Notes under the pieces: model-generated
Seen by the model: the letters and a program-made list of their open reading frames with translations, nothing else
The model's database searches: none
What the model was told of the DNA's origin: nothing
Part shown: one piece after another, positions 26,039-62,167 of the stretch
Position numbering within the stretch: the stretch's first letter is position 1
Layout of the letters: each line of letters starts with the position of its first letter
Source: a bacterium
GTDB lineage: Bacteria; Zhuqueibacterota; Zhuqueibacteria; Residuimicrobiales; Krinioviventaceae
Length of the DNA: 64,000 nt
Assembly: GCA_963693055.1 (NCBI GenBank)
Contig: OY843751.1
Coordinates: 3,552,001 to 3,616,000 of the forward strand
Direction of reading: 5' to 3'
Made by a program: the position numbers and the translations under genes

Positions 26039-26059
26039 TTTTACTCAACTATTTCATTA

Positions 26060-27466: not shown

Positions 27467-27480
27467 TATTTTCTCCTCAA

Positions 27481-30011: not shown

Positions 30012-30639
30012 GAGAACCTGAAATAATTTTTATCGGGATAATACCCAGGGGATCAATTTCGGGATCATCCTGACTCACTTCGGCAGCACCGATAAATGAA
30101 ACGGAGTGTCCCGTTTGCAACTGGCTTTTTGCAGGATTTACCACCAACTCTCTCACCCGTTTATTGATCTCTGAAGAAATGGCATTAAACTCCATGCTGT
30201 TGGGGAAATCACTCACATCCACCAATCCGGAAGCATCCCGGACAGCGTTGCCAAACAGATCCAGAGCAATCAGCAAGACATCCGGGTTTCCGTCTTTTGT
30301 TGTATCCAAATAAAATCCACTCGGTTCAATCTTGACCACAGTACCCTCACCTTTGATCAAATAAGCGTGTTTGGATGCAATACCCAGTGTTTTAGCATAT
30401 TTCGATACAGCTTTATCCATATCATTTTGAAATAATGGAAGCAGAACATTTGCATCCACAGCTTGGCCCAATACAGACGGAAGTTCTTTATCCCAAAAAT
30501 TCTGTACATATATTTGGGCATCAAAAACATCGGATTTAGCATTTTCTTTCATCTTGTCCAGTTTCTTGATATAAACAGACTGGGACAATATGACCAAACC
30601 CAACACCAGAAAGATAAAATATTTAATTTTTCTCTTCAT
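30004..30639 (-). CDS. DUF2291-family membrane-anchored periplasmic protein
   Basis: N-terminal hydrophobic anchor; [25 protein letters not shown]; position between SBP and ATPase typical of DUF2291. Confidence 0.7.
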
Positions 30640-31585: not shown

Positions 31586-31601
31586 TTTTTACTCCTGTTA
31601 T

Positions 31602-40291: not shown

Positions 40292-40321
40292 TAACAGCTC
40301 CTATAAAAGTAAAAACGGATA

Positions 40322-41467
40322 CTAGATAAAATCAGGCCATTTATAACTACCCGGCTTGACGGTTAAATTTATTTCCGGGTGGCAGGCAACGTTCATTCGA
40401 ACTACACCGGGCCCAAGCTCTTGAATTGGAATAAATCTTTGCCATCCCATATGTCTTACAATTGCAGATGCAGTTGATCCGCCTTCAATAAACAATTCAT
40501 TTACTTTAAACTGGACAAGAATTTTAGCTACAATTACAGTAACAAGCTCTAATAACCTTTCAGTCAAGTTTTCAATAGGCGGAAGACTCTGACTGACTGC
40601 AATTACCAATTTTTCACATCCGTATATTTCTTTTAATATATTGTTTACCCATTCATCAATAGATTTTTCTTTATTCTTTTCAAGTTCTAAAAACGATGCG
40701 GGAATCTCTCCCAGAATGAATTGTTTCTGCCCAAACATCTTTATCGAGTTTACTCTATTCGGTGAATTACTACCGCAAACACAAAGAACATTTTTTGAAA
40801 AATCTGGTAAAGATTCAAGCTCAATTTCCTGACGCTCAAATTGAGAACCAAGCAAAGCATCAAAATAATCAGAACTACCAGCAGGCAGTGTATTCGCTGG
40901 ATTGATATTTGTCCAGAATTTCATTTCCATGCTATTATTGCATTCACCAATAACAATTCCAGCCTCAGGGACTCCCTGATCTACAGAACGATATTCTATC
41001 AGCATTTCGTCGGATTCATTGAATCGTTTTAAAACATCAGATACTGTAACGGGAAAATCAATATCATGTGCAAATTCAGTTTCATCTAGAGGTACACCAT
41101 GTATATAATAATGCCCACCATCAATAACCCGACCGGCAGATGGATTTGCGGGCACAAGTAAAGCTAATGGTATATGTAATTGATTCATCATTTCTTTTAT
41201 CTCTGGCAACAAATGTCCCCGAAGAACGGAATCAATCTTTTTATAAATCCACTCCGGAGAAAGATTTTTCAATATTGTTGCTATTTCAGCAATCTTTTCA
41301 ACTGCACTTTTTTCAGTAGATGACCGGGTATTAGAATCGATTATAAGCAAATCTGACTCGCAACTGGAAATGGGCTTTGTACATATTTCAACACGTTTAC
41401 CATAACGAAGCGCGATTCCTCCCATTTCAGCACTACCCGAAAAATCATCAGCTACTACTGCTATCAT
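40322..41467 (-). CDS. Four-carbon acid-sugar kinase (DUF1537; DtnK/DenK family)
   Basis: ADDFSG, YKKIDSVLRGH, PANPSAGR, GS, EGGSTA, VKPGS. Confidence 0.85.
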   Translation of the reverse strand: MIAVVADDFSGSAEMGGIALRYGKRVEICTKPISSCESDLLIIDSNTRSSTEKSAVEKIAEIATILKNLSPEWIYKKIDSVLRGHLLPEIKEMMNQLHIPLALLVPANPSAGRVIDGGHYYIHGVPLDETEFAHDIDFPVTVSDVLKRFNESDEMLIEYRSVDQGVPEAGIVIGECNNSMEMKFWTNINPANTLPAGSSDYFDALLGSQFERQEIELESLPDFSKNVLCVCGSNSPNRVNSIKMFGQKQFILGEIPASFLELEKNKEKSIDEWVNNILKEIYGCEKLVIAVSQSLPPIENLTERLLELVTVIVAKILVQFKVNELFIEGGSTASAIVRHMGWQRFIPIQELGPGVVRMNVACHPEINLTVKPGSYKWPDFI

Positions 41468-41520
41468 TTAAAACTCCTTGTCAACATCGCCCTGCTGAAT
41501 TCTTTTACCACTTTCATATT

Positions 41521-42561
41521 CTATTTTCTGCTCCTTGCCATTGTTATAGCATATTCAATAGCATAAATCAAAGCCATGGGACTTGCAATCCCTTGCCCTG
41601 CAATTTCAAATGCTGTTCCGTGATCCACAGAAGTTCTAATGATGGGTAAACCCAATGTAATATTCACGCCACTAACATTTTGCATTTGCTGCTTTTTATT
41701 GTCCCACTTGAAACCTATCAGTTTGAACGGTATATGTCCCTGGTCATGATACATAGCCACACATCCGTCATAATATCCACCAACTGCCTTGGGGAACAAG
41801 GTATCTGGTGGAACAGGGCCTTCCACGTCCATCCCCTCGCCAACCGCTTGTTCAATGGCTGGACGTATATGCTTTATCTCTTCATCTCCAAAAAGCCCAC
41901 CATCTCCCGAATGCGGATTCAATCCTGCCACACCTATCCGGGGATTAGATACGCCAAATTGCCTGCAGGCCGCTTCCATAAGCTTGATAACATCCACAAT
42001 ACGATCTTTGGTTATAATTTCACAAGCCTGATGTAAAGAAACATGGGTCGTGACATGTATAACCCGAAAATTACCATGTGCAAGCAGCATGGCAACACTG
42101 GGTGTGTTGGTTAATTCAGCATAAATCTCAGTATGACCGGAATAATGATGTCCGGCAAGATTCATAGATTCCTTGTTCAGGGGGCTGGTTACTGTAGCGT
42201 CTATCTCTCCTACAAGAGCAAGTTCAATGACTTTTTTAACAGATTGATACGCGGCATTGCCACACATAGCATTGATTTCACCATATTGCAATTGCTCCAT
42301 ATTTACCAGATCCAGATCCATTACATCAATGGTGCCGCATTCAAATCTCGCATCACTTACTCGAGTACTTTTGTGGATATATAAATCCTTTCCACTAAAA
42401 GTCATTGCTTGTTGTAAAACATTTGCATCACCTATTACTATAGGCTTACACTTTTCATAAATATCAGGAAAGGCCAATGCCTTTATAATAATCTCTGGCC
42501 CTATTCCGGCCGGATCTCCCATTGATATTCCTAATATGGGTTTTGATTCAACATTTGACAT
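41521..42561 (-). CDS. pdxA2: PdxA-family oxidative decarboxylase; probable D-threonate-4-phosphate dehydrogenase (PdxA2)
   Basis: MGDPAGIGPE, GHTE, HVTTH, LNPHSG, MYHDQGHIP, RTSVDHGTAF; adjacent to a DUF1537 kinase. Confidence 0.8.
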   Translation of the reverse strand: MSNVESKPILGISMGDPAGIGPEIIIKALAFPDIYEKCKPIVIGDANVLQQAMTFSGKDLYIHKSTRVSDARFECGTIDVMDLDLVNMEQLQYGEINAMCGNAAYQSVKKVIELALVGEIDATVTSPLNKESMNLAGHHYSGHTEIYAELTNTPSVAMLLAHGNFRVIHVTTHVSLHQACEIITKDRIVDVIKLMEAACRQFGVSNPRIGVAGLNPHSGDGGLFGDEEIKHIRPAIEQAVGEGMDVEGPVPPDTLFPKAVGGYYDGCVAMYHDQGHIPFKLIGFKWDNKKQQMQNVSGVNITLGLPIIRTSVDHGTAFEIAGQGIASPMALIYAIEYAITMARSRK

Positions 42562-42574
42562 TTGTACTTTTTCT

Positions 42575-43501
42575 CTAATTCATCAATTCTTTTAATGCGA
42601 TTTCGATTTGTTGCGCCTCTAATAACGATAATGCTAAAATCGGTGGCAATACAACTTTTTCACACAATCCGAGTGAATGCATGCATACTTTGAGTGCTGC
42701 AAGAGACTGGCTTAGAATGCGATCTTTTTGGTATACAAGAGATATATCATTGGTCGCCTTTTGCAGCGTTTCTGCCTGTTCTCTCTCTCCTTTTATTGCG
42801 GCATTGTACAAATCCCGATACATACCAGGAACGATATTTCCGGTACTGGGTACAATCCCATCCGCACCATTTAAAAGCGCATATGTAGATTGTGCGGCCC
42901 AGCCTATTAGAAAACTAAAATCACTATTGTCTTTCCACAGGGTTATACATTTATCCAGCCTTGCTGGGTCTCGTTCAGAGTCTTTTAATCCTGAAATATT
43001 GGGATGTTTACTCAACGTTTCTAAAACATCCAGAGGAATGGACATCCCCGTAGTTCCGGGGATATTGTATACAATCAACGGGACAGGACTGGCATCTGCA
43101 AGCTTCTCAAAATACTGCAACATATGATTTGGGGTCAATGGATAATATTCCGGTAAATGTGCTACTACCGCATCAACACCCAAGTCTGCAAATTGCCGGG
43201 CCATTTCAACACTGATCTGAAAACAAGTGCTGTCAATACCTGCATATGTCAACTCTTTTTTGTTCGTCACACTTACCATTTCCGAAACCAGCTTAACTTT
43301 TTGATCCAAAGGTATGGATGCCGCTTCTCCGGTTGTTCCCAATACAAAGGGACTGGTTTTGGCAGCAACCAGATGCTCGGTAATTTTGGCAACGGCTCTT
43401 GTATCAACTTTATTCGAGTTAGTAAAAGGTGAAACCATGGGTACAACCACACCGCTGTATTTTTTTCGACTAGTCAATATACATTCCTGTTTATAATGCA
43501 T
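42575..43501 (-). CDS. DHDPS/NAL-family class I aldolase; candidate Dha aldolase
   Basis: GTTGE, IVYNIP, Schiff-base GLKDS; probable TTG start at 43477. Confidence 0.85.
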   Translation of the reverse strand: MHYKQECILTSRKKYSGVVVPMVSPFTNSNKVDTRAVAKITEHLVAAKTSPFVLGTTGEAASIPLDQKVKLVSEMVSVTNKKELTYAGIDSTCFQISVEMARQFADLGVDAVVAHLPEYYPLTPNHMLQYFEKLADASPVPLIVYNIPGTTGMSIPLDVLETLSKHPNISGLKDSERDPARLDKCITLWKDNSDFSFLIGWAAQSTYALLNGADGIVPSTGNIVPGMYRDLYNAAIKGEREQAETLQKATNDISLVYQKDRILSQSLAALKVCMHSLGLCEKVVLPPILALSLLEAQQIEIALKELMN

Positions 43502-44636
43502 TCATATAAATTTCAGTGGCAATTTTTTCATCTATTGTGAGTGGATTATTTTTCAATAATCGGGTAACGGTTAATGCAGATTTAACCATGCCGGGTATAT
43601 CATCCATTGTAATGCCAAATTCTGACATTTTGAATGGTATACCAATATTTTTCATCAGGGATTTAAGAGATTCCACTCCGGCCATAGCAGTATCTAAATC
43701 AGTATCAGCAAGATCTGCTCCCAATGCCAATGCAATCTGCGCAAATCGCTCCGGTGCGGATGGTATGCTTGCTTGCATTACATATGGCATCATAACCGCT
43801 ATGGACAATCCATGGGGTACATGAAATTCTCCGCCCAGGGGATACGCCAACGCGTGAACAGCCGCAGTGTTAACAGGGCCCAGGCACATACCGCCATACA
43901 TACTCCCCAAAGCCAATCTTGAACGGGCTTCTTTATCTTGTCCATTCTTCACCGCGGTTTCAAGATTTTCCGAAATATAGCGAATACCTTCAAGCGCATA
44001 CATATCTACCATGGGATGTGCGTTAATATTGATATACGACTCGAGGCAATGCGATAGAGCATCAATGCCTGTAAATGCAGTAACATTGGGTGGAACTGAT
44101 AAAGCCAACAACGGATCAATATAGACCCGATCAGGTACCAGCCAGGGGCTAATGATCCCTTTTTTCAGATTGTCATGTTCATCCAGCAATATAGAATTGG
44201 GAGACACTTCACTGCCCGTACCTGCGGTAGTTGGTAAACAGGCCAGGAATATTTCCCTACTCTGCAAATTACCAATGCCAATAGTATCATATATATCCTG
44301 ATTTTTATTACAGAGTGCTGCTACTATCTTGGCCAGATCCATTACACTGCCCCCACCTATAGCGGCTACACTATCGATACTATGACTTGATGCAATTTCC
44401 CGTATACGTTCTGCATCGCGAACTATGGGTTCATTAGCAAGATCATCAACAACAATTACGGAATCACAAGATTTTTGTAAAATTTTGATTTGTTCATCAA
44501 TAACAGGAACCAATGGTGCAATGGTTACAATTAATAAACTTTTAAACTTTAAGGATAAAATATCATCTACAAACTGATCAATGCAGTTTTCTCCGAAAAC
44601 AACATGACGTGGAAATGTAAAACTTGTATTTTTCAT
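43491..44636 (-). CDS. Iron-containing (family III) alcohol dehydrogenase / aldehyde reductase
   Basis: GGGSVMD, PTTAGTGSE, DALSHCLES, HALAY..HVPHG. Confidence 0.92.
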   Translation of the reverse strand: MKNTSFTFPRHVVFGENCIDQFVDDILSLKFKSLLIVTIAPLVPVIDEQIKILQKSCDSVIVVDDLANEPIVRDAERIREIASSHSIDSVAAIGGGSVMDLAKIVAALCNKNQDIYDTIGIGNLQSREIFLACLPTTAGTGSEVSPNSILLDEHDNLKKGIISPWLVPDRVYIDPLLALSVPPNVTAFTGIDALSHCLESYININAHPMVDMYALEGIRYISENLETAVKNGQDKEARSRLALGSMYGGMCLGPVNTAAVHALAYPLGGEFHVPHGLSIAVMMPYVMQASIPSAPERFAQIALALGADLADTDLDTAMAGVESLKSLMKNIGIPFKMSEFGITMDDIPGMVKSALTVTRLLKNNPLTIDEKIATEIYMNAL

Positions 44637-44662
44637 AATTTATAATATATTTCTCCCAAATA

Positions 44663-46549
44663 TTAGTATCTTGTTCTGAAATTCTTTAAATAATATACAA
44701 CAGGTGCAACAGGATCGTCAGGTCGTTTTTCATCAAATCCCGGTACAAATTGATCACCGCTTTTGTATTCGGTCACATCATTGGTTAAGCGATAATCGCC
44801 TGTACGAAAGATAATCCGTTCGGGAACAGTCCCTTTGGCAGAAAAAGCAGCGTTTGTTACCAACTTTTCGTCATTTAATGATAAATTAAACTGTTCTTTT
44901 TTTGCGTCCAGATCGATCATGACAGTATACCATTTCCCGGATTCAATTTCAGTAACAGATGTTGCATTGTTGTTCCCTTTTTTCACCAAAAGCGAACCGG
45001 TTGTGTCAAATCGGGCCTGTACCAAACGTTCTCCTTTGGCAGACACAACTTCAACATCAAGCACCTGGTGCTGACATTCTGCATATAAATCAAACGAGAT
45101 TTGCTGTTTTTCAGATTTATTAAATACCCGTACAGCCTTGGCATAGTCATAGGGATCCACATCTTTGAGCATCAAACATTTTTCAGATGCATAGGGTGCT
45201 ACTACAACCTCTACCGGGCACCATTTGGGGCTGTAAACATTCCAGTCTGTAACAACACCACCGGTTTCCATTTCATTAAAATTATCATTAATGGGACCTG
45301 TAACATCTCCGCGCACAGGCACCGGTATGCGCGAAATCCACATATCCTCTTTACTCACTGAATAAACAACCCAAAGATCATTGCCCGGGGGATTACCATT
45401 CCCTTCAATAATTCCTCGTACATATTGAGGTCCGGGTCTTTTTTCACGTCCCCAAAACCGTTTGAGGGGTACTTCACTGTGGACATTTAATAAATTATCG
45501 AAATGAATCCCATCATCTCCGGTAGCAATACTTAGTGGATGTCTGGCAAGGCCGCCAGTTGGATTATAAACCAATGCATACTGCCCGTTATCCATACGCT
45601 GTGCCCAAATCTTAGCACCGGCATAACTCAGAGTATTACATTGTACGGGTTCTGACCAGCTTTCTCCTTGATCAAAGCTCAAAGTAGTCCAGCGAGCTTT
45701 AAAGAAACCAACCAGTACACTGTCAGGACGGGTATAGTAACAAAAAGCCTGTCCCGGACTTTTCTCTCCATCGTCCATGATCCAGGGAACACGATAAAAA
45801 TCATCCTTGTTTGCTGCAGTGCGATCTTCTTCCCACCATTGTATGCGTTTGACCTTGTCATTTAAAAAAGCATCACAGGCAGATACAAAACCTTTATCAT
45901 TAGATTCTGTATACATGGGGTAAGTCATGTCTTTTTTACGCCCAAAGTTGGCTTTGATACTGTAAATGGGACCAAAGGTATTGTCCTTATAAACTTCACG
46001 CACAACTCGTCCAACACCGTCACCTTTATTGCCGCCATAAAAACCAAAAGCCAACAGCCTGCCATCAGGTGCTACATAAAAAGCCATACGTTGGTGCATG
46101 TGAATGAGATCTACCCAGTCGCCTTCTCCCGGTAAAAAATAGATGGGAAATATAACCTGGGGCTTGCTCCAGTTTTTGCCATCTTTAGACATTGCAACAA
46201 GTGTTACGCCCGGTGGAATGTGTTCACCAGTGGGATTTGACAGATAAATACAATAAAACATGCCATTCCAATATGTCAGCATAGGTGCATGGTTATAGGT
46301 CCACCCCATATCATCAGCCAGCTCGGGATGGGTGCGGTTGGCCCGCAATATCTGATAATTTTGTACACCCACAGCGGGACGGAATTGTCCGTCATGGTAA
46401 CCTGAATCATAATCGCTATTTGACGTGGTTACCGGCCCAACATAGCGTACCGGTTCAGATTTATCTCCAGGTTTAGCATAAATTTGGATAATACTTGACA
46501 ATACAATCAGCAGAGTTGATATAATGTGTTCAATTTTCATTCGTTCCAT
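44663..46549 (-). CDS. GH143-like Dha (3-deoxy-D-lyxo-2-heptulosaric acid) hydrolase, stand-alone, secreted
   Basis: Signal peptide; YHDGQFRPAVGV..RANRTHPE..GWTYNHAPML, GEHIPPG, MHQRMAFY, GVGRVVRE, QWWEED, AKIWAQR, GPQYVRGI, YSVSKEDMW recalled as the BT1020 N-terminal domain pattern; RG-II context. Confidence 0.72.
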   Translation of the reverse strand: MERMKIEHIISTLLIVLSSIIQIYAKPGDKSEPVRYVGPVTTSNSDYDSGYHDGQFRPAVGVQNYQILRANRTHPELADDMGWTYNHAPMLTYWNGMFYCIYLSNPTGEHIPPGVTLVAMSKDGKNWSKPQVIFPIYFLPGEGDWVDLIHMHQRMAFYVAPDGRLLAFGFYGGNKGDGVGRVVREVYKDNTFGPIYSIKANFGRKKDMTYPMYTESNDKGFVSACDAFLNDKVKRIQWWEEDRTAANKDDFYRVPWIMDDGEKSPGQAFCYYTRPDSVLVGFFKARWTTLSFDQGESWSEPVQCNTLSYAGAKIWAQRMDNGQYALVYNPTGGLARHPLSIATGDDGIHFDNLLNVHSEVPLKRFWGREKRPGPQYVRGIIEGNGNPPGNDLWVVYSVSKEDMWISRIPVPVRGDVTGPINDNFNEMETGGVVTDWNVYSPKWCPVEVVVAPYASEKCLMLKDVDPYDYAKAVRVFNKSEKQQISFDLYAECQHQVLDVEVVSAKGERLVQARFDTTGSLLVKKGNNNATSVTEIESGKWYTVMIDLDAKKEQFNLSLNDEKLVTNAAFSAKGTVPERIIFRTGDYRLTNDVTEYKSGDQFVPGFDEKRPDDPVAPVVYYLKNFRTRY

Positions 46550-46573
46550 GAGTTTTCCATAATTTATAATGTA

Positions 46574-49279
46574 TTAAAAATGATCAGCTATACCTTCGGA
46601 AAGGAACTGATAACTACCGGATTCAAGTTCAAAAATCACCAAGTCATCCTTTATTTCAATAAAACGTACGCCAACAGATTGATCAACAGGAGCCATATTC
46701 TCCTTGACCTGTTTTATATTCACGGCAGGTAAATGCAATTCTGCTGTTGTATTTGCGGGTATGGTCACATCCAGAACCAGATCATTGTCACGGATTTTCC
46801 AGCTTGACTCGATACGGCCATACAAGGATGTATAATGCGAATTGACATACGTTATTCTCTTGTTGGGTTGCGGCTTTAACAGGATTTTTCTAAATCCGAC
46901 CTCTTTGGCATCAATACCGGCCATGACCGAAAACATCCATTCACAAACAGAACCAAACGCATAATGACTGAATGAATTCATACCATCGGGGTTAAAACCG
47001 CCATCAATGGTATAACTGTTCCAGCGTTCCCAAATTGTGGTAGCGCCATTAACTACCGAATAACCCCATGATGGAAAATCTGTATTTAAAAGCAATTGAT
47101 AAGCAATATCCGTATAACCGAAACGGGTCAATGAGGGCAGCAGATGTTTAACGCCCAGAAAACCGGTTGCCAGATTACCATTATTTTCTTTAATCAAATC
47201 AGCAAGATATTTTGCAGCCCTTGCCTCCTGCTGTGAATCCAGCAGCCCAAAATAAAGTGCCAGAGTATAACTGGTTTGTGTATGTTCAGAGATGCGACCA
47301 TTACTTGCCACATATTTATCTTTGAATGCCAGACGGATTTTTTCAAAAAGATCAGTGTAATAATCAATGTCACTATTTTTTCCCAGAACTGAAGCCATTT
47401 CAGCCATCAGTTTCACATCATACGCGTAAAATGCACTGGCCAAATAATCAAGCGATGTCTGTGCGCCGATTGCCAGCCAGTCACCCCAGTCATTTTCATT
47501 TGCCGCAAGTAGGTAACCATCAGAACGATTGTTCATATAGTCTATAAATTTTTGCATTGCCGGATACATGTACTCGAGCAGACGTTTATCTCCATACATC
47601 TGATAGATAACCCAGGGTACAATAACGCCGGCATCTACCCATCCCGAGGCTTGTTCATTTTTGAATACAAATGAATACGGTGCCCAATCGGTAAAAATCC
47701 CATCATTTTTTTGTGCGTCTACCAGATCAACCAACCATTTACGCATAAAGGAAGCAATATTTGCATTATATGCTGCGGACCGGACATAGATTTGCGCATC
47801 TCCGCTCCATCCACAACGTTCATCTCGTTGCGGGCAATCAGTAGGCACTTCAAAGAAATTGGACCGCTGGGTCCACAATATATTGCTGTATAATTGGTTC
47901 ACCATATCATCAGAGCACTCTAACCGTCCTGCCGGGTGAATATCAGAATTCACAATAATACCGGTTACTGTATGTTCATCCGGCACAAAAGACAATCCTC
48001 GTACCTCAACATACTGAAAGCCGTGATAAGTGAAACGTGGCTGCCAGAGTTCCGTACCGTCACCATTCAGGATATATGTATCAATCGCTCTGGCAAAACG
48101 CAGGTTCTCGGTCATTAAACTGCCGTCGGGATGGAGCATTTCACCATAACGGATTACAACCTTGCTGCCTGCCTCTCCTGTCACTTTGATCCGTGCAAAA
48201 CCTGCAAAATTTTGTCCCATATTAAAAAGGTACACACCTTGTTCAGGTTCGGTAATTTCAACAGGTGTCATTTCTCCTGTCATACGTACTGGCACAGTAG
48301 GATAAGCCTCTAAAACACCTTTTGCAGGTTCAATGAGATCAACCGGTTTCCAGGTTTTTTCTATATAGCCTGCAAGGTTCCAACCTAAAAGTTCGCTACA
48401 GGCATCATAGGTTTCGCCCATGAACAGGTCCGCTTCTTTAATCGGGCCTATGGCAGTAGTCCATGACGAATCAGAACAGATGACTTGTTTCTCGCCATTT
48501 TCCAGCTCCACTTCCAACTGACACAACAGCGCGGGGGTATCGCCATATTGGTTACGGGGATTGGGGATATTTTGGTCCAGGCAAAACCCTACATAACCGG
48601 CATACCAACCATCAGCAAGTATGGCACCAATGGAATTTTCACCCTTGAATAAATAATGTGTTACATCAAAAGTATGATAATAGATACGTTTGTTATAATC
48701 TGTCCAACCGGGCACAAACATCCGTTTTCCAACTTTATCACCATTAATTGAAGGCTCTACCAACCCCAATGCAGTGACATACAACGTTGCCTTGGCTGGA
48801 GTCTCATCAAGCTCGAACGTTTTCCGCAGAAATGGGCTGGGCGGCAATCTCAAATCTTTACCGCGAAATTCAGCAGGATAGTCGTTCAAATTCCGGTTAC
48901 GCCCTATCCATTGGGCTTGCCAGTCATCCTTCTCAAGCAATCCCATAGACCACATATTAATATCACTCCAGGGTGACCATGTGTCATCTTTGTCCCAAAT
49001 TCTGACTTGCCAGTAACAGTGCATACGGGATTTCAAAGGTTTTCCCTTGTAAGGAACAAGCACGCACTGATCACTCGTTATTTTACCGGAATCCCAGAGA
49101 TCAGCAAAGTCACGTCTCAACAAGTCCTGGCCGGAAGCCACACGAATCTGATACGCGGTCTGTTTTTGACCGCGTTGTTCAGATTCAATAATCCAGCTTA
49201 AACCCGGTTGAGTAACATCAATCCCAAGGGGATTATCGAGGTACTCACAGGTTAGTTTATTTACACTTGCATCTGTCAT
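46574..49279 (-). CDS. GH78 alpha-L-rhamnosidase without signal peptide
   Basis: LTCEYLDNPLGID, LWDSGK, GQNFAG, PRFTYHGFQY, PTDCPQRDERCGWSGDA, GATTIWERWN, MNSFSHY. Confidence 0.93.
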   Translation of the reverse strand: MTDASVNKLTCEYLDNPLGIDVTQPGLSWIIESEQRGQKQTAYQIRVASGQDLLRRDFADLWDSGKITSDQCVLVPYKGKPLKSRMHCYWQVRIWDKDDTWSPWSDINMWSMGLLEKDDWQAQWIGRNRNLNDYPAEFRGKDLRLPPSPFLRKTFELDETPAKATLYVTALGLVEPSINGDKVGKRMFVPGWTDYNKRIYYHTFDVTHYLFKGENSIGAILADGWYAGYVGFCLDQNIPNPRNQYGDTPALLCQLEVELENGEKQVICSDSSWTTAIGPIKEADLFMGETYDACSELLGWNLAGYIEKTWKPVDLIEPAKGVLEAYPTVPVRMTGEMTPVEITEPEQGVYLFNMGQNFAGFARIKVTGEAGSKVVIRYGEMLHPDGSLMTENLRFARAIDTYILNGDGTELWQPRFTYHGFQYVEVRGLSFVPDEHTVTGIIVNSDIHPAGRLECSDDMVNQLYSNILWTQRSNFFEVPTDCPQRDERCGWSGDAQIYVRSAAYNANIASFMRKWLVDLVDAQKNDGIFTDWAPYSFVFKNEQASGWVDAGVIVPWVIYQMYGDKRLLEYMYPAMQKFIDYMNNRSDGYLLAANENDWGDWLAIGAQTSLDYLASAFYAYDVKLMAEMASVLGKNSDIDYYTDLFEKIRLAFKDKYVASNGRISEHTQTSYTLALYFGLLDSQQEARAAKYLADLIKENNGNLATGFLGVKHLLPSLTRFGYTDIAYQLLLNTDFPSWGYSVVNGATTIWERWNSYTIDGGFNPDGMNSFSHYAFGSVCEWMFSVMAGIDAKEVGFRKILLKPQPNKRITYVNSHYTSLYGRIESSWKIRDNDLVLDVTIPANTTAELHLPAVNIKQVKENMAPVDQSVGVRFIEIKDDLVIFELESGSYQFLSEGIADHF

Positions 49280-49461
49280 GAAGCTGTATCATCCTTTTTC
49301 TTTTGCATCCAAAACGGAGCAGTTAGAAACCATAAAAACATACCCGCCAGCATCAGCTGTGCGTGCAGGTTCCAGGAAATCACCTGTTTGAACACAAAAA
49401 ATGAGGGTAATATTGTCAAAGCCAGACCTATATATGACAATACCATTAATAAATTTCTCAT
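49276..49461 (-). CDS. 61-aa two-TM small membrane protein
   Basis: Two hydrophobic segments; starts 3 nt after the permease stop; its stop overlaps the GH78 start (ATGA). Confidence 0.7.
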   Translation of the reverse strand: MRNLLMVLSYIGLALTILPSFFVFKQVISWNLHAQLMLAGMFLWFLTAPFWMQKKKDDTAS

Positions 49462-49464
49462 AAC

Positions 49465-50901
49465 CTAGGCCTCCACGGTTTTGTTAAGATCAGTACTTTT
49501 AACACCAAACAGACCATATTTCTGTTCCAATGCGCTAAACACAATATAAAAGATTACGGTAATGAACCAGCCGGGAAGTGCCAGAAAATAGATTTCAAGG
49601 CTGTATTTAAAATACAGATAGAGACACACAGCCAGTGATCCACCCCATGCAAGCGCGGATGGAATACTGAACATTTTATTCATCAATTCAGCATAGTTGC
49701 TTTTCAATCCAATTTTTGGGAACACCCAGAAATCGATAAAAATAAATGCGCCAACTGGCATAAAAATGAGGCCATAAAGCGCAACAACTTCGGTTAAACG
49801 GTTTACAACCGCCGGAAACATGGCAATAATTGTAGTTGCAGTACCGGCAACCAGGGTCACTTTCCAACGTTTCCAGTTCGGTGTAGCCACCTGGAACGCC
49901 AAACCTGCACGGTACAGGGTAGGATTCGCAGTAGTCCATCCTGCAACCACAACGGTTACCGCACCAACAACACCTGCGCCTAACAATGCAATGGGACCGG
50001 GAGCAATGCTGTTATTGGGATTAATAGCAAGCGCAGCAGCACACAATATACCGGATGCTACCCAGGCCACGTAATGCCCTAAAAACATGCCAAAAGCGGA
50101 TGCAAAACCATAGGTCCATTTTTTTGCATAACGGAACAATGTCATGTCTGACATACCAATATGCTGATGAAGATTACACAACCATGAGAAAAAAATTACA
50201 TGCCAGATGGTGAATTTTGATTGGCCGGCAACTACATTACCAGTCCAGATTTTTTCATTGGCAACAGACCAAAAATCACCCAGTGAGGTCACACCCAGTT
50301 TGGGCAATACCGCAAAAGCAGATGCAACAAAGACCAGAAACATCCAAGGTGCGCTGACTTTGGCAAACTTGGCCAGTTTTTCAAAACCCAAAATGGCAAG
50401 TAAAGAAACCACTGTTCCCACTGCAAATACAACTACTACCCAGGTAACACCAGTGGGCATGGTATCTGTCAGTTTGGGCATGGGCATATTAAAAGGAAGT
50501 CCCACCGCGGTTGCCGAAACAGTAACCATAGCCCCGGCTAGAAGGCATAAAATTAATGCGTACAAAATCCCATAAATAAAAGTTAAATAGGGACCACAGA
50601 TTTTTCGGATCTGCCAGTAAACGGTCAAACGGGTCCTGACTGCGATTGGAGCGCAGTACAATGCCCAACTCAAAACCGCCAGAATATTACCAATGATTAG
50701 ACCGATAAACAGGTCAGGTGCGGTTACACCATGTACAACAAACAGGGGTCCTAACACAAATTCTGTTCCGGCAATATGCTCGCCAGAAAACATTGCAATA
50801 AAATTCGATGATCCCTGCAATTTGTCTTTTGACACGGGCTCACGGTCAAATTCATACAAACCGTCAAGCCGCTTGATCAATCCACCTTTTTCTTTACTCA
50901 A
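49465..50901 (-). CDS. NCS1/cytosine-permease-like secondary transporter
   Basis: TTG start after AGGAG; about 12 TM segments; GEHIAGTEF, DMTLFRYAK, GWTTANPTLYRAGLA. Confidence 0.72.
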   Translation of the reverse strand: MSKEKGGLIKRLDGLYEFDREPVSKDKLQGSSNFIAMFSGEHIAGTEFVLGPLFVVHGVTAPDLFIGLIIGNILAVLSWALYCAPIAVRTRLTVYWQIRKICGPYLTFIYGILYALILCLLAGAMVTVSATAVGLPFNMPMPKLTDTMPTGVTWVVVVFAVGTVVSLLAILGFEKLAKFAKVSAPWMFLVFVASAFAVLPKLGVTSLGDFWSVANEKIWTGNVVAGQSKFTIWHVIFFSWLCNLHQHIGMSDMTLFRYAKKWTYGFASAFGMFLGHYVAWVASGILCAAALAINPNNSIAPGPIALLGAGVVGAVTVVVAGWTTANPTLYRAGLAFQVATPNWKRWKVTLVAGTATTIIAMFPAVVNRLTEVVALYGLIFMPVGAFIFIDFWVFPKIGLKSNYAELMNKMFSIPSALAWGGSLAVCLYLYFKYSLEIYFLALPGWFITVIFYIVFSALEQKYGLFGVKSTDLNKTVEA

Positions 50902-50942
50902 AGTTCACTCCTGTAGATTGGGTTATATTGTTAAGTTAATTT

Positions 50943-52373
50943 CTATTCAATCTGTCCGGGTACACTAAAATCTTTAGAGGCATCATCCAGCACCAGTACC
51001 CAATCATTACCTTCTGCCATTTCACCCGGAGGATCAAAGCTATGGCTTCCACGGTTATCCAGTTCGCCAATCAACTCGGCTTTACCATCACGGGGATTAT
51101 ACCACCATGCCTTTACTTTATCACCGGAAATTTTCCCAAGTGCTACATCAAAGGCACGTCCAGTATAGGTATAAAATACCGCATAACTATTACCGCGAGT
51201 TGCAATGACATAATCATATTTTTCACCGTTTTCACCGGCAACCAGTGACTGATCAGGAACACGATCAAAATACGGACGAGACAAGAACAAATTCTTAACG
51301 TACTGCATTTGTCCGGCACCGGGATCATTTATAGCTTCGTACCAGTATTCTTTTGCTCCATATGATGCTTTGGGGTATTCGGGCTTGTGCATCTGCATGA
51401 CCGAACTGTTTCCATATGAATGCCCGCAAGCGCCCGCGCAAACATCCCACCAGGCATAACGGCGTGCGTCTTTGGCTTCCCAAAATGGCTCATTGGGATC
51501 ATGAAGTCCCTGTGGTATGCCTTCATAAGAGGGTTCACCATCCAATGTGGGCTTGACAGGTTTTAAATCATAGTCATTTTTGACATAACGCCAGCTGTCT
51601 TCGCCCCAGGGATTGGAACCATCATCATTCTGGTCATATCTTCTGTGACCGGATTGAAACATGTTAAAATCAAGCCAGGATTCATTATGGAACCAGGTTG
51701 ACGAGTTTGCACGTCCAAACGGATGAAAAGTAACCAGATGGTTCGGATCTTTGGTTTTGAATATGGTTCCCATAGTATTCCATACATCCATACCGTCGGT
51801 GCCTTGAATATCTCCACCAGTAATCCAGATGATATTGGGTTTATCTTTGTAACGTTCTACAAGGAAATTGGCATAGGGTTCAATATTACTCATATTGATC
51901 TTGCCGGATTTGACAATACTGCCCCAGCTAGCAACCATACCAATGTAAATATCGTTTTCCGCTGCCTTGTCAACAATATAATCCACATGGTCCCAGTAAT
52001 CATAAGCTTTTGGATCTGCCGGGTCATTGCCCGGGGTTACATTGGGTTTTGAAGGATCTACATCAACAAAAGCACTGTCACCAAAAGTGTTAACCATGGG
52101 TAACCCGTGCAGCACCATGATCTGAATGACATTATATCCCTTTTCTTTGCGATTTGTGATAAATGTATCAGCTTCGGTACGGTCCAGTCTGCGAAAGGCC
52201 AGCCATCCGGTATCTCCCAACCAGAAAAACGGTTTGCCGTTTTCAAACTGCAAAAACCTTCCATTTTCTGAAACAACCAGATTTCCATTGTCCCAGGGTT
52301 TCATTTTGGTGGTTTGAGTACCGGAACACCCAACCAGCAATGCGAGGAACAACAACAAAAAGAGTTTTTTCAT
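50943..52373 (-). CDS. GH140 apiosidase (DUF4038 + C-terminal beta domain), lipoprotein
   Basis: Lipobox LVGC; VSENGRFL..GKPFFWLGDTGW, YWDHVD, IWITGGD, TFHPFG, WLDFNMFQSGH, DGEPSYE, WWYNPRDG, NDWVLVLD. Confidence 0.88.
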   Translation of the reverse strand: MKKLFLLLFLALLVGCSGTQTTKMKPWDNGNLVVSENGRFLQFENGKPFFWLGDTGWLAFRRLDRTEADTFITNRKEKGYNVIQIMVLHGLPMVNTFGDSAFVDVDPSKPNVTPGNDPADPKAYDYWDHVDYIVDKAAENDIYIGMVASWGSIVKSGKINMSNIEPYANFLVERYKDKPNIIWITGGDIQGTDGMDVWNTMGTIFKTKDPNHLVTFHPFGRANSSTWFHNESWLDFNMFQSGHRRYDQNDDGSNPWGEDSWRYVKNDYDLKPVKPTLDGEPSYEGIPQGLHDPNEPFWEAKDARRYAWWDVCAGACGHSYGNSSVMQMHKPEYPKASYGAKEYWYEAINDPGAGQMQYVKNLFLSRPYFDRVPDQSLVAGENGEKYDYVIATRGNSYAVFYTYTGRAFDVALGKISGDKVKAWWYNPRDGKAELIGELDNRGSHSFDPPGEMAEGNDWVLVLDDASKDFSVPGQIE

Positions 52374-52415
52374 CCCTTTACTCCTGTTTTATATAAATCT
52401 TAATAATTCTCTACA

Positions 52416-54443
52416 CTAGCGATTAACCGGCAGCCATACCGACATATCGCCTTTGCCTCGGTTGCCCCAGGCAAAATAGGGTACCAGACAGATTTCCAAA
52501 TCATCCGGAGCATCATCAGAAATAGGCCGGTAAAGTTCATTCCATTCCGGTTCGTTTACAGATAATGCCTGACCTTCAAGGCATACAATGGTCTGCTCTT
52601 CTATTTTTTTGACATTAGGTACCAGTTCAACATCTTCTGGCAGCAGAATATCTGACACATTCACGCCCTTGGGCAGGTCTGCAGATTCCAGGCAATACAC
52701 AACCGGTCCGCGTTGCACGGCAACCTGATTGCGTGTTTCTTCAACCAGCGGATTTGCTTGCATGAGCATTGCAGGCATGGGAAAATCCAGTTCAATGCGG
52801 TCGCCCTTTTTCCACTGACGTGTGATCTCGGTATAACTGGAAGGTACCGTTTTTGTATCTACAGATTCACCATTGATCTGAAGCGCTGCTCCCGTTGACC
52901 ATCCCGGTATCCGCAGCATGATAGAAACAGGTCCGGTTGGCACTTTTTCAACAGAGATGTTAATTTTCCCGTCCCATGGATAATCTGTTTTCTGCACCAA
53001 TCGGATTTCTGATCCATTTTCTAATTCTGTATCTATTGTATTAGCTCCATATAAATGCACCCATACACCTTTTTCAGAGATGCTGTATGCATAGCTGTTA
53101 ACCTCTGCAACGGTTCTGACTACATTTGGCGGACAGCAAAAGCAGGATATATAAGGTTCACGTTCACGTGACCAGCGCAATTCAAAAGGAGTGCGATGAT
53201 CTACCCGCAAAGGATTGGTATAAAAATAACCTTTTCCATCCAGGCTGATGCTGGACAATACACTGTTGTAAAGTGCAAGTTCAAGCACATCTGCAAATCG
53301 TGCCTCGGCAGTGGCGTTCAGCATTCTCCAATTCCATAACACATTACCAATATTGGCGCACGACTCATTATGTGCGGTTTCGTTATGAAGTTGAAATTCT
53401 CTACCATATGCCTGATGCACCTGTTGAATCTCGGGGGGACTGTATGATGTACCATCCGGTGAGACACCATCATAAAGCGCACCACAGCCACCGGTAATAT
53501 ACATCTTTGTGTTGACCATATCGTGCCAGATCAAGTCCAGCGTTTTTAACAGGGTCTCATCTCCGGTTTCCGCATAAACATCCGCAACACCGGCATATAG
53601 ATAATTTGCACGCACCGCGTGCCCCTGAGCTTTTGTCTGTTGCCTGAACGGTACACGGTCCTGATTGTGATCGGTACCGTTTTCAACATACTTGCGGATC
53701 TCTATCAGGCTTTCTGCCAACTCTAAATATCTCGGTTCTTTTGTGGTGCGGTACATTTCAACAACACCCATATAATGAGAGGGACAAATGGCGTTTCTGG
53801 CAAGTTCGGGGGTTGAATTTTTATAAAAATCGTATAGGAAATCCGTAGCACGGATAGCAATTTCTAACAGACTCTTTTTTCCGGTTACACGATAATGAAC
53901 ACATGCGGCGGTCATGAGATGCCCCATGTTATAGGTTTCGAAATGCAGCCGGTCAGCAAATTCGTTTACCTCGGTTTGATGATAGCGTTGCTGAATGATT
54001 ACCGGTGTATGGATATATCCATCCTCACGTTGGCATTTGGCGATAACAGGAATGAGTTCATCCATCAATCTTTCAATTTCTTTATCACCCGTTATAGCAT
54101 AAACCGTAACAGCCGCTTCAAACCATTTGTAAAAATCACCATCATGCCACGATGGCCCATCGTGTTCACCGGTATGGATTCCGGCAGCAATTAGAAAATT
54201 CTCCCAATTGTGGCTAATATCCACATCTTTGAGAATGTCCCACATGTGCGGTACCATAACATCACTGCAAACCTGAAAACGTTCAGCCCAAAATCCATCG
54301 GTCCAGGTAACATCATCCAGATCAACATTTTTCAGTTTAACATTGGGACTGTTTTCCGTATTCAGTAATCCATTACTTCCCGCCCAGAGCTGGAACGAGA
54401 GAACACATAATATATATACGATTATTTTTTTCATGTATTTCAA
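52416..54443 (-). CDS. GH127 of the aceric-acid-hydrolase type
   Basis: Signal peptide; HDGDFYKW, FETYNMGHL, NAICPSHYMG, GHAVRANYLY, HQAYG (Gln at the usual acid/base Glu), ESCAN, CFCCPPN. Confidence 0.82.
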   Translation of the reverse strand: MKYMKKIIVYILCVLSFQLWAGSNGLLNTENSPNVKLKNVDLDDVTWTDGFWAERFQVCSDVMVPHMWDILKDVDISHNWENFLIAAGIHTGEHDGPSWHDGDFYKWFEAAVTVYAITGDKEIERLMDELIPVIAKCQREDGYIHTPVIIQQRYHQTEVNEFADRLHFETYNMGHLMTAACVHYRVTGKKSLLEIAIRATDFLYDFYKNSTPELARNAICPSHYMGVVEMYRTTKEPRYLELAESLIEIRKYVENGTDHNQDRVPFRQQTKAQGHAVRANYLYAGVADVYAETGDETLLKTLDLIWHDMVNTKMYITGGCGALYDGVSPDGTSYSPPEIQQVHQAYGREFQLHNETAHNESCANIGNVLWNWRMLNATAEARFADVLELALYNSVLSSISLDGKGYFYTNPLRVDHRTPFELRWSREREPYISCFCCPPNVVRTVAEVNSYAYSISEKGVWVHLYGANTIDTELENGSEIRLVQKTDYPWDGKINISVEKVPTGPVSIMLRIPGWSTGAALQINGESVDTKTVPSSYTEITRQWKKGDRIELDFPMPAMLMQANPLVEETRNQVAVQRGPVVYCLESADLPKGVNVSDILLPEDVELVPNVKKIEEQTIVCLEGQALSVNEPEWNELYRPISDDAPDDLEICLVPYFAWGNRGKGDMSVWLPVNR

Positions 54444-54460
54444 ACCTCCGATTTAAAAAA

Positions 54461-56038
54461 TTATTCCTGAATACGGGTGAGTCGCAGTGCCATATAAGGC
54501 TTTTTCGGGAATTTAATTACCGAATGGTCTTTATCAATATAATTATAGCGGTTCAGCATTTCAACTGTATAAACTTTATTTATGGGAGTAATGGTCATAT
54601 TCCATGTATCTATCAATTCGGCTTTGAATTTCATGCCATTTTCAAGACCTTCATCCGGCAGCTTGAATTCCCATTCTTCCGGTGTGTGTTCTGCAAAATA
54701 GTAGAGATAATATTCACCATATTTACCAGCCGCATTCAGCAGATAATAGTGGTCTAATGGTTGTAGACCTTCCTGCGGACCAGACTCTACAATTTCACGC
54801 AAAAACCCAATGCGTTCTGCACTGGTTCCGCGCAACACACCACCTTCGGAAATCCAGTCGATCTTGGATTCATGCTCAATAGCCTCACCATGTGTGGCAT
54901 AAGAACCTCCGATATAGGCGATCCAGAAACGACGGGTCATTTCCTCACCGGAAAGCTGTCCCCATCGGCTGGCAATATTGCCTTCGTAATTGATCTCGTC
55001 ATTCACCAGCGGTTTTCCGTAAATATCACGGACTACCATACATACACCAAAATTACGTACTACATTATAATACTGCAAGCTGACATGGGTAACCCAGGGT
55101 TTGGTATAATCGTACAAATCACCGGCATTATGGATAGAACGGAGATGATGATACGGGTCCTTGTCTCTAACAACCTTAAAATAGTGGTCCCAATCTTCCG
55201 CAGTTAAATGCCGGATAAAGCTATTCTCGTTTGCCAGACTCCACCAGACATTACTGTACGCTCCCAATCTGGCGATAACATAACGCAGATACCGGTCATT
55301 GGTCTCGCGATCCATTGTATCGAATCCAAACTTTCCATTATCATAAGGTCTGAACAGGATCACATCCGCTTCAATACCCAATTCTCGCAGGCGTTCTACA
55401 TTCTTTTCAAACGCTTTAAAAAATGTGGTATTAAACCGAGAGAAATCCCATTTATTTTCCGGTTCTCCTTCAAAGGGAAACTCTTTGATTGCTCGGGGAC
55501 CCTCTACATAATCCTCAGTATAATTGGGTAATACCAGGAAGCGTACCTTGTTAAAGGGAGAATTCTTTAACGTTTCAAGGGTCTGGTTTTGCAGTTCAGG
55601 GGATTCAAAACACCACTGGTAGCAGGTGGTGCCGAAGGGAAAGTACGGTTTGCCATCCGCATAAGCAAAATGATACTTGTTCCGCACAACAACGGGACCA
55701 TGACTATCTGATTTGGGGGCAATACAGGTAAACTCTCCTGTCAGACCATCCAGTTCTTTTTTATTACTGTGGGTCTTGAATGTCCATTCCCCTTCCAGAT
55801 CAGGCATGAATCGTATTTTAAAAATGCCTTCTCCATCGTAAAAACCTTCCGGCTCATATACAGCATGGGTAGAATCACTGTGATGGAATTCAGCGCTTAA
55901 GGTAATACCGACAAAGGGATTGCCATAATCAGGACCGTTAAATTCCGCTTCATAAATATCCCATTTTTCTACTTTTTGTTGCTGTGCAAAAATTATGGTT
56001 GTGAATAGTAAAATCATCAATACCAGACTCTTTTTCAT
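54461..56038 (-). CDS. DUF5060-DUF4038-DUF5605 apiosidase-like putative glycoside hydrolase, secreted
   Basis: VEKWDIYE..GP..GNPF, GFYDG..IRFMP, HFAYADGKPYFPFGTTCY, SPFNKVRF, WWSLANE, SIHN, DEINYEG, IDTWNMTI. Confidence 0.75.
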   Translation of the reverse strand: MKKSLVLMILLFTTIIFAQQQKVEKWDIYEAEFNGPDYGNPFVGITLSAEFHHSDSTHAVYEPEGFYDGEGIFKIRFMPDLEGEWTFKTHSNKKELDGLTGEFTCIAPKSDSHGPVVVRNKYHFAYADGKPYFPFGTTCYQWCFESPELQNQTLETLKNSPFNKVRFLVLPNYTEDYVEGPRAIKEFPFEGEPENKWDFSRFNTTFFKAFEKNVERLRELGIEADVILFRPYDNGKFGFDTMDRETNDRYLRYVIARLGAYSNVWWSLANENSFIRHLTAEDWDHYFKVVRDKDPYHHLRSIHNAGDLYDYTKPWVTHVSLQYYNVVRNFGVCMVVRDIYGKPLVNDEINYEGNIASRWGQLSGEEMTRRFWIAYIGGSYATHGEAIEHESKIDWISEGGVLRGTSAERIGFLREIVESGPQEGLQPLDHYYLLNAAGKYGEYYLYYFAEHTPEEWEFKLPDEGLENGMKFKAELIDTWNMTITPINKVYTVEMLNRYNYIDKDHSVIKFPKKPYMALRLTRIQE

Positions 56039-56805
56039 TCTAAATCTCCGGGATCAGTAGTTACCAGCCATTTGGCAAGTGATAAATTTTGTTTATTAAT
56101 ATCTTTTGCAAACAGACCTGCCATTTCTATAGCGCCATATTCGCAAAAATGTGTATCATCCTGTTTTCCATCCGGACAGCAGGGAAACGCATCCGGGCCA
56201 AACCATAAAAACAGTTCTTTTGAACCTTCGGGACCTTTGGACACAATTATTTCTTTACTCAAAACGTGCATATCTACCAGAGGAACTTGCTGCTCTTTTG
56301 CGGTCAGACGTACCGCATCCGGATACTTTCCATGCGTATCAAAGAATTTACCTTCCTCATCAAAACGTCTGCGCATAATAGGCGTACATAGTATAGGTTT
56401 CGCTCCCTTTTCTCTGCTCTTTGCTATAAACATTTCCAAATTGGCTTTATAGGTGCCAAAAGGTGTTGTATAGCGTGTGGAATCATAATCTTTTTCATCA
56501 TTGTGGCCAAACTGGATGATCAAATAATCACCCGCTTTTATCGAATCCAATACAACTTGCCAGCGTCCTTCATCAATAAAACTTTTAGAGCTTCTTCCAT
56601 TTCTCGAATGGTTATCAATAGTCGCGTATTCATTAAAATATCGCGGCAGTAACTGTCCCCATCCACGTTCAGGATTACCGGTATCCAGGGGTTTGTCTGC
56701 CATGGTAGAATCGCCAATCATGTAAATGGTTACTGGTTTGTTGGTATCACAGGAAAAGATAACCATGCTGAAAATCATCAGTAAAAAAAGAATGTGATTT
56801 TTCAT
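56035..56805 (-). CDS. Rhamnogalacturonan acetylesterase (CE12, SGNH), lipoprotein
   Basis: IGDSTMA, GWGQ, GRSSKSF, QFGHND, DDTH; lipobox IFSC. Confidence 0.9.
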   Translation of the reverse strand: MKNHILFLLMIFSMVIFSCDTNKPVTIYMIGDSTMADKPLDTGNPERGWGQLLPRYFNEYATIDNHSRNGRSSKSFIDEGRWQVVLDSIKAGDYLIIQFGHNDEKDYDSTRYTTPFGTYKANLEMFIAKSREKGAKPILCTPIMRRRFDEEGKFFDTHGKYPDAVRLTAKEQQVPLVDMHVLSKEIIVSKGPEGSKELFLWFGPDAFPCCPDGKQDDTHFCEYGAIEMAGLFAKDINKQNLSLAKWLVTTDPGDLE

Positions 56806-56875
56806 AACAATACCTTAATTAATACACATTTTGGATGAAATCATATTATCAAAATTAAATAATCATACTATACAC

Positions 56876-62132: not shown

Positions 62133-62167
62133 AATCCCATCTCCCAAAAAGTTAATTACAACTTTTC

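Follow-up and report, generated by a model that had tools for sequence, protein, structure and literature searches.

We analysed a 64,000-nt stretch of bacterial DNA (assembly GCA_963693055.1, contig OY843751.1, positions 3,552,001 to 3,616,000; hereafter the window), from a complete 6.5-Mb genome whose closest named relatives belong to candidate division KSB1, and focused on four consecutive genes encoding a glycoside hydrolase of family 140 (GH140), a permease, a 61-aa membrane protein and a GH78 enzyme. The permease and the small protein belong to a large rhamnose-linked family in which the window copy forms part of a specialised branch, a point that an earlier note on this DNA had missed. 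The family as a whole likely imports L-rhamnose, and the evidence tilts slightly towards the window copy importing L-rhamnosyl-α1,3-D-apiose (Rha-Api), a fragment of rhamnogalacturonan II (RG-II), for a GH78 that lacks a signal peptide. In the broader picture, to which we give about even chances, two-subunit Na+-coupled L-rhamnose importers derived from the nucleobase:cation symporter-1 (NCS1) fold, having changed from nucleobases to sugars, occur in KSB1, Planctomycetota, Verrucomicrobiota and Bacteroidota, and one branch was re-tuned to Rha-Api and took on signal-less GH78s more than once, so that RG-II degradation would finish inside the cell, unlike the periplasmic Bacteroides route.

All four genes are real open reading frames (ORFs) on the minus strand, and their order and coordinates agree with the earlier note: GH140 (50943-52373, 476 aa), the permease (49465-50901, 478 aa, TTG start), the small ORF (49276-49461, 61 aa) and GH78 (46574-49279, 901 aa). 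The first two are separated by 41 nt and the permease and small ORF by 3 nt, while the small gene's stop and the GH78 start share a 4-nt ATGA overlap, the translational-coupling arrangement that had been claimed. Pfam and NCBIfam searches placed the four genes within a long same-strand RG-II locus, which also carries a GH138-like enzyme, a GH127, a GH143-like BT_1020 homologue, a lyase-GH33-like fusion, a PL11 lyase and esterases. A scan of positions 44001-57000 found 42 promoter sites (34.5 expected) and 13 terminator sites (11.1 expected) and was uninformative.

The permease family was surveyed at 165 loci obtained with exact peptide patterns, comprising 45 from genomes, 80 of 546 metagenome matches and 40 KSB1 regions picked for flank length among 71 KSB1-phylum matches. 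The family is large, with 7656 of 8000 scored candidates matching and members in 63 of 167 genomes of the KSB1 phylum, and public sources name it 'purine-cytosine permease'. Outside the window's own branch (clade A, below), rhamnose catabolic genes lay near 56 of 136 loci, and near 44 of the 88 that are at least 12 kb long, a count that leaves out RhaA and GH106. Such genes accompanied 28 of the 30 Flavobacteriaceae-type loci, where the neighbours are RhaEW (scoring over the NCBIfam cut-off), RhaI, RhaB and lactate and lactaldehyde dehydrogenases; other non-A members adjoin RhaI-like genes, RhaA, GH106, leader-bearing GH78s and LUD-domain lactate genes. We consider it quite probable that the family substrate is rhamnose-related. 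Because no rhamnose gene from the reference set appears at half of the non-A loci, other substrates are possible in some branches. Among the literature matches listed, in a search outside which most subscription journals lay, no paper linked such a permease to rhamnose or apiose.

RhaT-family genes co-occurred with the permease in three of five genomes, namely the window's genome and two of the three Flavobacteriaceae tested, so the proposal that the family replaces RhaT wherever it is found was not supported. In those genomes the RhaT-family genes adjoin a different isomerase-like gene, and in this gene pair (G000:C1:3976659-3979152, L291 and L292) the 470-aa isomerase-like protein is 58% identical between the window's genome and the two Flavobacteriaceae.

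To describe the window's branch, we used a tree of 118 rows, on which the window permease fell in a 29-row clade with a Shimodaira-Hasegawa-like approximate likelihood ratio test (SH-aLRT) value of 99 in quick mode without bootstrap. The tree omitted nine partial rows, all from loci with non-A motifs. Motifs served to class the 40 KSB1 regions, and L211 joined clade A in this way; the 29 clade-A loci counted here exclude the window and include the near-identical L001. The clade carries Gln246, an aromatic residue at 114, Leu118 and Leu241. Gln246 was present in 100% of clade-A rows versus Met in 95-100% elsewhere, and position 114 is an invariant Asn outside the clade. Cultured carriers of the permease include Bythopirellula polymerisocia, whose copy at L034 belongs to clade A, and Algibacter, whose copy at L045 lies in a rhamnose operon.

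The results of the neighbourhood survey, which the earlier note had suggested, tied clade A to signal-less GH78s, RG-II enzymes and apiose catabolism. A signal-less GH78 stood beside the small gene in 27 of the 29 loci; 24 of these were intact and co-oriented, and one each was frameshifted, cut by a contig end or convergent (the three being L005, L097 and L030). Ten GH78s directly downstream of non-A permeases all have leaders. RG-II or apiose genes were found near 19/29 clade-A loci and 0/136 others (apiose genes 11/29 versus 0/136, leaving out transketolase pairs of 36-39% identity at L019, L035 and L037; RG-II enzymes 15/29 versus 0/136), and rhamnose catabolic genes near none of the 29; the clade loci are kin and the references were taken from the window, so that this contrast, which spans four phyla, is not a statistical test and its counts are not independent events. 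The permease directly follows apiose catabolic genes in L029, L031 and L041 and ends an apiose operon in L211, a KSB1 locus with the clade residues. Another KSB1 locus, L284, examined afterwards, has the clade residues, a signal-less GH78 and a more distant GH140 homologue. The idea that GH140 is a fixed part of the module was rejected, as a strict orthologue occurred in only 2/29 clade loci.

A second permease with a small gene lies elsewhere in the window's genome (L048, G000:C1:4967348-4978546; the permease itself at 4974799-4976169), together with a LacI regulator and the genome's only RhaI-like gene, which scores below the RhaI model cut-off. This copy plausibly serves free rhamnose. The same locus continues with a sulfatase, a UroD-like protein, a sodium/solute symporter (SSS) and a second GH140, 40% identical to that of the window. 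At G000:C1:4722717-4725858 are a putative class II aldolase, an aldehyde dehydrogenase-like gene and two short EutN/CcmL-like ORFs, a set reminiscent of the microcompartment genes that degrade rhamnose or fucose.

Sequence searches did not place the permease: against Pfam it matched nothing at E<=10 except a chance DUF4516, and neither NCBIfam nor PDB gave a useful match. Its NCS1 placement therefore comes from a fold search. An AlphaFold2 model built from a 74-sequence alignment (predicted local distance difference test, pLDDT, 90.7) matched CodB (7qoa) best in Foldseek (E 2.7e-10), and the VIA structure comparison gave Z scores of 35.2 for CodB (root-mean-square deviation 3.0 over 393 residues), 30.1 for Mhp1 and 24.1 for the next family. 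The model is thus far nearer CodB and Mhp1 than SSS and APC transporters, and the label 'NCS1-like' that had been proposed is borne out by fold, though invisible by sequence. The window protein had no match to the curated models PF02133 and TIGR00800, and two homologues reached about 44 bits against the TIGR00800 cut-off of 353. Because the curated models do not recognise it and the tryptophan of transmembrane helix (TM) 3 is missing, we speak of an NCS1-like family rather than of an NCS1 member. The model suggests a 478-aa LeuT/NCS1-fold protein of an uncharacterised rhamnose-linked family, subclade A.

In CodB, Trp108 of TM3 stacks the nucleobase. In a profile alignment with CodB (match probability 97%), which aligns sequence profiles rather than overlaying structures residue by residue, Trp108 aligned gap-free to permease Leu121, a position that is Leu in 89-100% of alignment rows. 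CodB Gln105 aligned to Leu118 and Asn280 to Ala325, and Phe204, the TM6 aromatic, mapped to Leu241 (Phe in most non-A rows), with a two-residue gap that leaves Trp240 or Asn243 possible. The sodium-site pair was kept: Thr323/Thr324 aligned to CodB Thr278/Thr279, and 89% of clade-A rows and 100% of the remaining rows have the TM8 Na2-site hydroxyl pair. The window permease and the rhamnose-operon members have in common the motifs EHxAGTE in TM1, N-x3-H-x-G-x2-D in TM6 and WTTANP in TM8, and no Lys or Arg was found mid-helix in TM1, 3, 6, 8 or 10. Residue roles and numbering in CodB follow PMC9379551, with which the numbering of the E. coli CodB sequence agrees. Model and alignment together indicate a permease built like an NCS1 symporter in which the nucleobase site is not kept. 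The suggestion in the earlier note that the substrate is a sugar and not a nucleobase thus gains support from the replaced TM3 Trp, the pocket residues and the family's gene context.

The 61-aa protein matched no Pfam or NCBIfam family. Compared with locus L001, its ORF showed 11 synonymous and 2 non-synonymous codon differences, and the protein is conserved across phyla; because of this synonymous bias and conservation, the small ORF is a real gene. A homologous small gene followed the permease in 120 of 130 evaluable loci outside the Flavobacteriaceae type (28/29 in clade A, the 29th, L024, being a fusion, and 92 of 101 evaluable non-A loci, five others being too short) and in 0/30 Flavobacteriaceae-type loci. 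Of the nine non-A misses, three showed a small gene on re-inspection, while another three have a two-helix tail at their end. Natural fusions of the small protein to the permease C-terminus occurred in L024 and P0122, which are close relatives of each other. All three small-protein matches in a Bythopirellula genome and both in the window's genome follow a family permease, and the protein was absent from the three Flavobacteriaceae genomes searched.

Complex prediction for the permease and the small protein, as the earlier note had proposed, gave 0.76 against 0.00 for the best control, a mark reached by 116/157 solved complexes and 2/215 mismatched pairs, rates that are only rough here given the custom alignments. 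The runs agreed in at least 98% of contacts, with a partner pLDDT of at least 80, and placed the small protein against TM5 (permease residues 178-205) and the beginning of TM8 (residues 309-315). The tightest predicted contact joins permease Trp186 to Trp44 of the partner. Trp186 was found in 100% of 89 rows from partner-bearing groups. In most of the 29 Flavobacteriaceae-type rows its place is taken by Ile, Phe or Val, and Ala312 becomes Phe there; by alignment, this loss where the partner is absent is an informative and independent pointer to the interface. Conserved adjacency, the fusions, the Trp186 pattern and the predicted complex all favour the accessory-subunit role that had been suggested, and the 61-aa protein is very probably a two-helix membrane subunit of the permease.

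The GH78 contains five Pfam rhamnosidase-associated domains, the catalytic barrel among them, and matched PDB 3w5m at E 6.7e-234, which by sequence makes it a long SaRha78A-like α-L-rhamnosidase. Its reading frame opens only 3 codons before the ATG, so that no upstream signal peptide can be hidden there. The N-terminal hydrophobicity was 0.54 versus 2.66-4.09 for the 13 other carbohydrate-active enzyme (CAZyme)-like ORFs of the window, on a crude and unspecific score by which a cytoplasmic iron-dependent alcohol dehydrogenase (Fe-ADH) reached 2.72. By inspection together with this score, the GH78 is the lone case among 14 CAZyme-like ORFs, in agreement with the claim that it is the only complete CAZyme lacking a signal peptide, and by inspection the other 11 of the genome's 12 GH78s all have the hydrophobic leader that it lacks. 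The enzyme is predicted to work inside the cell.

BT1001, the characterised Rha-Api-cleaving GH78, corresponds to PDB 3cih (PMC4690510). Identity between the window GH78 and a BT1001 orthologue was 23.7%, 1285 bits being the score of a true orthologue, and the C-terminal half of the window GH78 gave no match to 3cih/BT1001 at E<=10, so it was rejected as a BT1001 orthologue. The assumption that it is of the characterised Rha-Api-cleaving type did not hold, and the BT1001 activity is not transferable to it, because identity is about 24% and the GH78 type is another. In a GH78 tree, the window GH78 group was sister to BT1013-like GH78-GH33 fusions of Bacteroidales (SH-aLRT 97). On a FastTree tree, the clade-A partner GH78s fell in several separate groups whose relatives have leaders, indicating that the signal-less state recurs; a single origin of the partners was not seen.

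We then considered the enzymes that would supply and consume the disaccharide. GH140 matched PF13204 (Apiosidase, E 4.6e-112) and, along its full length, PDB 3kzs/5msy (E 9.7e-157), its N-terminus (LLVGC) is lipoprotein-like, and its GGD and DGEP motifs aligned with those of 3kzs/5msy. We take 5msy to be BT1012 and the two motifs to contain the catalytic pair. The characterised GH140 is reportedly endo-acting, and BT1013 is reported to act on rhamnosyl-3-deoxy-D-manno-oct-2-ulosonic acid (Rha-Kdo). By sequence, the window GH140 is predicted to be a BT1012-like apiosidase lipoprotein that supplies Rha-Api. Beside it, a GH127 aceric acid hydrolase with a signal peptide (52416-54443, minus; NF049879, 1110 bits, cut-off 950) is predicted to trim aceric acid-Rha-Api to Rha-Api; GH127 occurred near 8/29 clade-A loci and 0/136 others. 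An apiose uptake and catabolism operon (22674-32363, minus), recognised by Pfam and by identity to the E. coli SE15 cluster, encodes a DeoR regulator, a binding protein, DUF2291, the ATPase and permease of an ATP-binding cassette (ABC) system, an isomerase, a split transketolase and a kinase. Identities to E. coli SE15 AptA, AptB and AplK (names from PMC13001218) were 51%, 45% and 36%, and the isomerase was called ApsI from its Pfam domain and position only. This operon likely consumes the released apiose, and its DUF2291 ABC system plausibly serves free apiose.

According to PMC7939467 and bioRxiv 10.64898/2026.03.13.711244, BT1012 cuts apiose off the backbone, after which BT1001 requires Rha-Api as a free disaccharide. 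The window's genome showed no BT1001 orthologue (best 24%), nor did any of five clade genomes, a few of which are small and perhaps incomplete bins. Among 12 Bacteroidales with an aceric acid hydrolase, eight have BT1001 and none has the permease. In one Bacteroidales genome without BT1001 (G407, L280:3688-8959), a signal-less GH78 lies by GH127, with genes for a major facilitator superfamily (MFS) transporter and a RhaT-family protein after it; this genome may follow the same intracellular strategy but use a different importer.

The module may work as follows. Secreted GH140, GH127 and other RG-II enzymes would leave L-Rha-α1,3-D-Api outside the cytoplasm, as is known for the B. thetaiotaomicron orthologues. 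The permease and the 61-aa protein would form a two-subunit cation-coupled importer of this disaccharide, in which the permease, with the modelled NCS1 fold, would take up Rha-Api, probably with Na+ at Thr323/Thr324, and the small protein would lie against TM5 and TM8 in a structural or assembly role. The cytoplasmic GH78 would then free rhamnose and apiose, replacing the missing BT1001, and the apiose would enter the isomerase-transketolase-kinase operon 14 kb downstream. Clade A would accordingly represent a branch of a rhamnose importer family re-tuned to a rhamnoside. An importer of Rha-Api is the simplest reading because the family is rhamnose-linked, an intracellular rhamnosidase is coupled to the permease, and the clade tracks apiose catabolism.

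Several observations weigh against this reading. The substrate is drawn from gene context, and the clade-A counts come from related loci sampled by peptide pattern. Ten of the 29 clade loci have no RG-II or apiose genes within 10 kb, and 6 of the 23 that are at least 12 kb long have neither marker; the GH78 of L084 has a leader, and L211 has no GH78 in the stretch examined. The 11 leader-bearing GH78s of the genome could split Rha-Api in the periplasm, and the coupled GH78, being unlike BT1001 and sister to BT1013-like domains, also fits Rha-Kdo. BT1001 and the permease are both missing from four of the 12 Bacteroidales, so neither is required. RhaT-family genes are present in the window's genome and in two of three Flavobacteriaceae, and the queries used detected neither RhaB nor RhaEW orthologues in the window's genome. 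Finally, the equivalence of the TM6 aromatic is ambiguous in the profile alignment, and the complex controls were 'unrelated natural proteins', perhaps not membrane hairpins.

If the module instead imports another rhamnose-capped RG-II fragment, the most plausible is Rha-α1,5-Kdo of side chain C, with the GH78 acting as the GH78 domain of BT1013 does. The sister grouping with the BT1013-like fusions suits this, as do a window GH33-like domain that is joined to a lyase and not to a GH78, and the cluster of aldolase, reductase, kinase and PdxA genes just downstream. Yet a GH33-like gene lay near 1/29 and an aldolase near 2/29 clade loci, against 11/29 for apiose genes; the window GH78 is only 35% identical to the BT1013-like domain, and two other GH78s of the genome are at least as similar to it; the permease offers no mid-helix Lys or Arg in TM1, 3, 6, 8 or 10 that could bind a carboxylate; and an SSS transporter is already encoded within the acid-sugar cluster. 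We regard Rha-Kdo as a real rival, but an unlikely one. Aceric acid released by the neighbouring GH127, the alternative substrate of the earlier note, meets the same want of a basic residue and leaves the coupling to GH78 unexplained; GH127 does mark 8/29 clade loci and none of the 136 others, but it is only one of several RG-II markers with similar counts, and this substrate is very improbable.

Two further readings assign the permease a free sugar. It could be a second L-rhamnose importer, beside a cytoplasmic GH78 acting on rhamnosides that enter otherwise. In favour are the TM1, TM6 and TM8 motifs that it shares with rhamnose-operon members, and non-A members would receive free rhamnose from the leader-bearing GH78s next to them. 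This role, however, is already filled by the paralogue near the RhaI-like gene; clade A has an aromatic residue for Asn114 and Gln for Met246, both of them fixed elsewhere, and none of its 29 loci lies near rhamnose catabolic genes, which makes this account quite unlikely. Import of free D-apiose, with GH78 a merely co-regulated neighbour, would fit L211, where the clade-type permease ends an apiose operon without an adjacent GH78, and several clade loci in which apiose catabolic genes surround the permease and no ABC transporter is seen. It would leave unexplained the signal-less rhamnosidase at 27/29 copies and the family's rhamnose ancestry, and a DUF2291 ABC system that matches the apiose cluster of E. 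coli SE15 is already encoded in the window; we judge it distinctly improbable. An ordinary cytosine/purine permease inserted in a pectin locus, as the public source names and the closeness of the CodB fold might suggest, is hardly credible: the TM3 Trp is absent, homologues reach 44 bits where TIGR00800 demands 353 and the window protein none, and no nucleobase gene was seen among the annotated neighbours, which are part of all neighbours.

Comparison with known systems places the proposed Rha-Api importer as follows. The permease resembles CodB and Mhp1 (2jln, 4d1a) in fold and in the Na2-site Thr-Thr of TM8, but at 16% identity it has Leu for the TM3 Trp and, unlike them, an invariant Glu41, His42, Glu47, Asn243 and His247, rhamnose genes next to it and a small partner protein. 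We know of no NCS1 member with a small partner protein or carrying a sugar; an NCS1-fold transporter with both is likely here. SGLT2-MAP17 (PDB) likewise pairs a LeuT-fold symporter with a small membrane partner, and the bacterial SSS pairs YjcH-ActP and MctB-MctC combine a small membrane protein with a LeuT-fold symporter by fusion or adjacency. Unlike those SSS-type pairs, the transporter here is NCS1-like and the small protein matches no family.

The B. thetaiotaomicron RG-II system comprises BT1012 (GH140), BT1003 (GH127) and BT1001 (GH78). GH140 and GH127 orthologues are also present here and the same Rha-Api is expected, whereas BT1001 orthologues, which have a leader, are absent, and the predicted replacement is a leaderless long-type GH78 coupled to an inner-membrane importer that all 12 Bacteroidales tested lack. 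In rhamnose operons, the non-A permeases hold the position of RhaT (drug/metabolite transporter superfamily, DMT), RhaSTPQ/RhaFGHJ (ABC), RhaY (MFS) and RhiT, but they belong to a different superfamily, with a LeuT fold and no DMT, MFS or ABC Pfam match. The parts of PMC3870299 available name rhamnose transporters of DMT, ABC and MFS types and none of NCS1 type, and state that some genomes have no candidate rhamnose transporter. If true, our reading would show what class of substrate is carried by a large family at present annotated as 'purine-cytosine permease', add a further class of rhamnose transporter, and show how degraders other than Bacteroides finish RG-II without BT1001. With two paralogues in one genome differing in few pocket residues, the specificity switch is open to direct testing.

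Further observations concern the window and related loci. A DUF5060-apiosidase-like-DUF5605 protein (54461-56038, minus), a distant GH140 relative, is the commonest RG-II-type neighbour of clade A (12/29 loci) and a candidate apiosidase where a true GH140 is missing. The pectate-lyase-like and BNR/GH33-like fusion (59649-62171, minus) is, in its BNR/GH33-like domain, 42% identical to the tail of a BT1013-like fusion. Two Sde182 nucleoside-hydrolase-like proteins with signal peptides (21220-22704 and 62168-63460, minus) have homologues in RG-II and apiose loci L006, L211, L275-L276 and L284. Near L019, L035, L037, L004 and L005, a second split transketolase (36-39% identical to that of the window) recurs with Asp/Glu racemase-like, bile-acid-symporter-like, aminotransferase and UroD-like genes, possibly a pathway for another RG-II sugar. 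Right after the GH143-like 3-deoxy-D-lyxo-hept-2-ulosaric acid (Dha) hydrolase, positions 38738-44636 (minus) encode the Fe-ADH, an aldolase of the dihydrodipicolinate synthase (DHDPS) family, a PdxA-like and a threonate-kinase-like protein and an SSS transporter. These genes may form a Dha route, in which aldol cleavage would yield pyruvate and tetruronate, followed by reduction to threonate and the action of the kinase and PdxA2. The same five genes were found near GH143 and GH33 homologues in one Bacteroidales genome (L278-L279), and four of them in L030.

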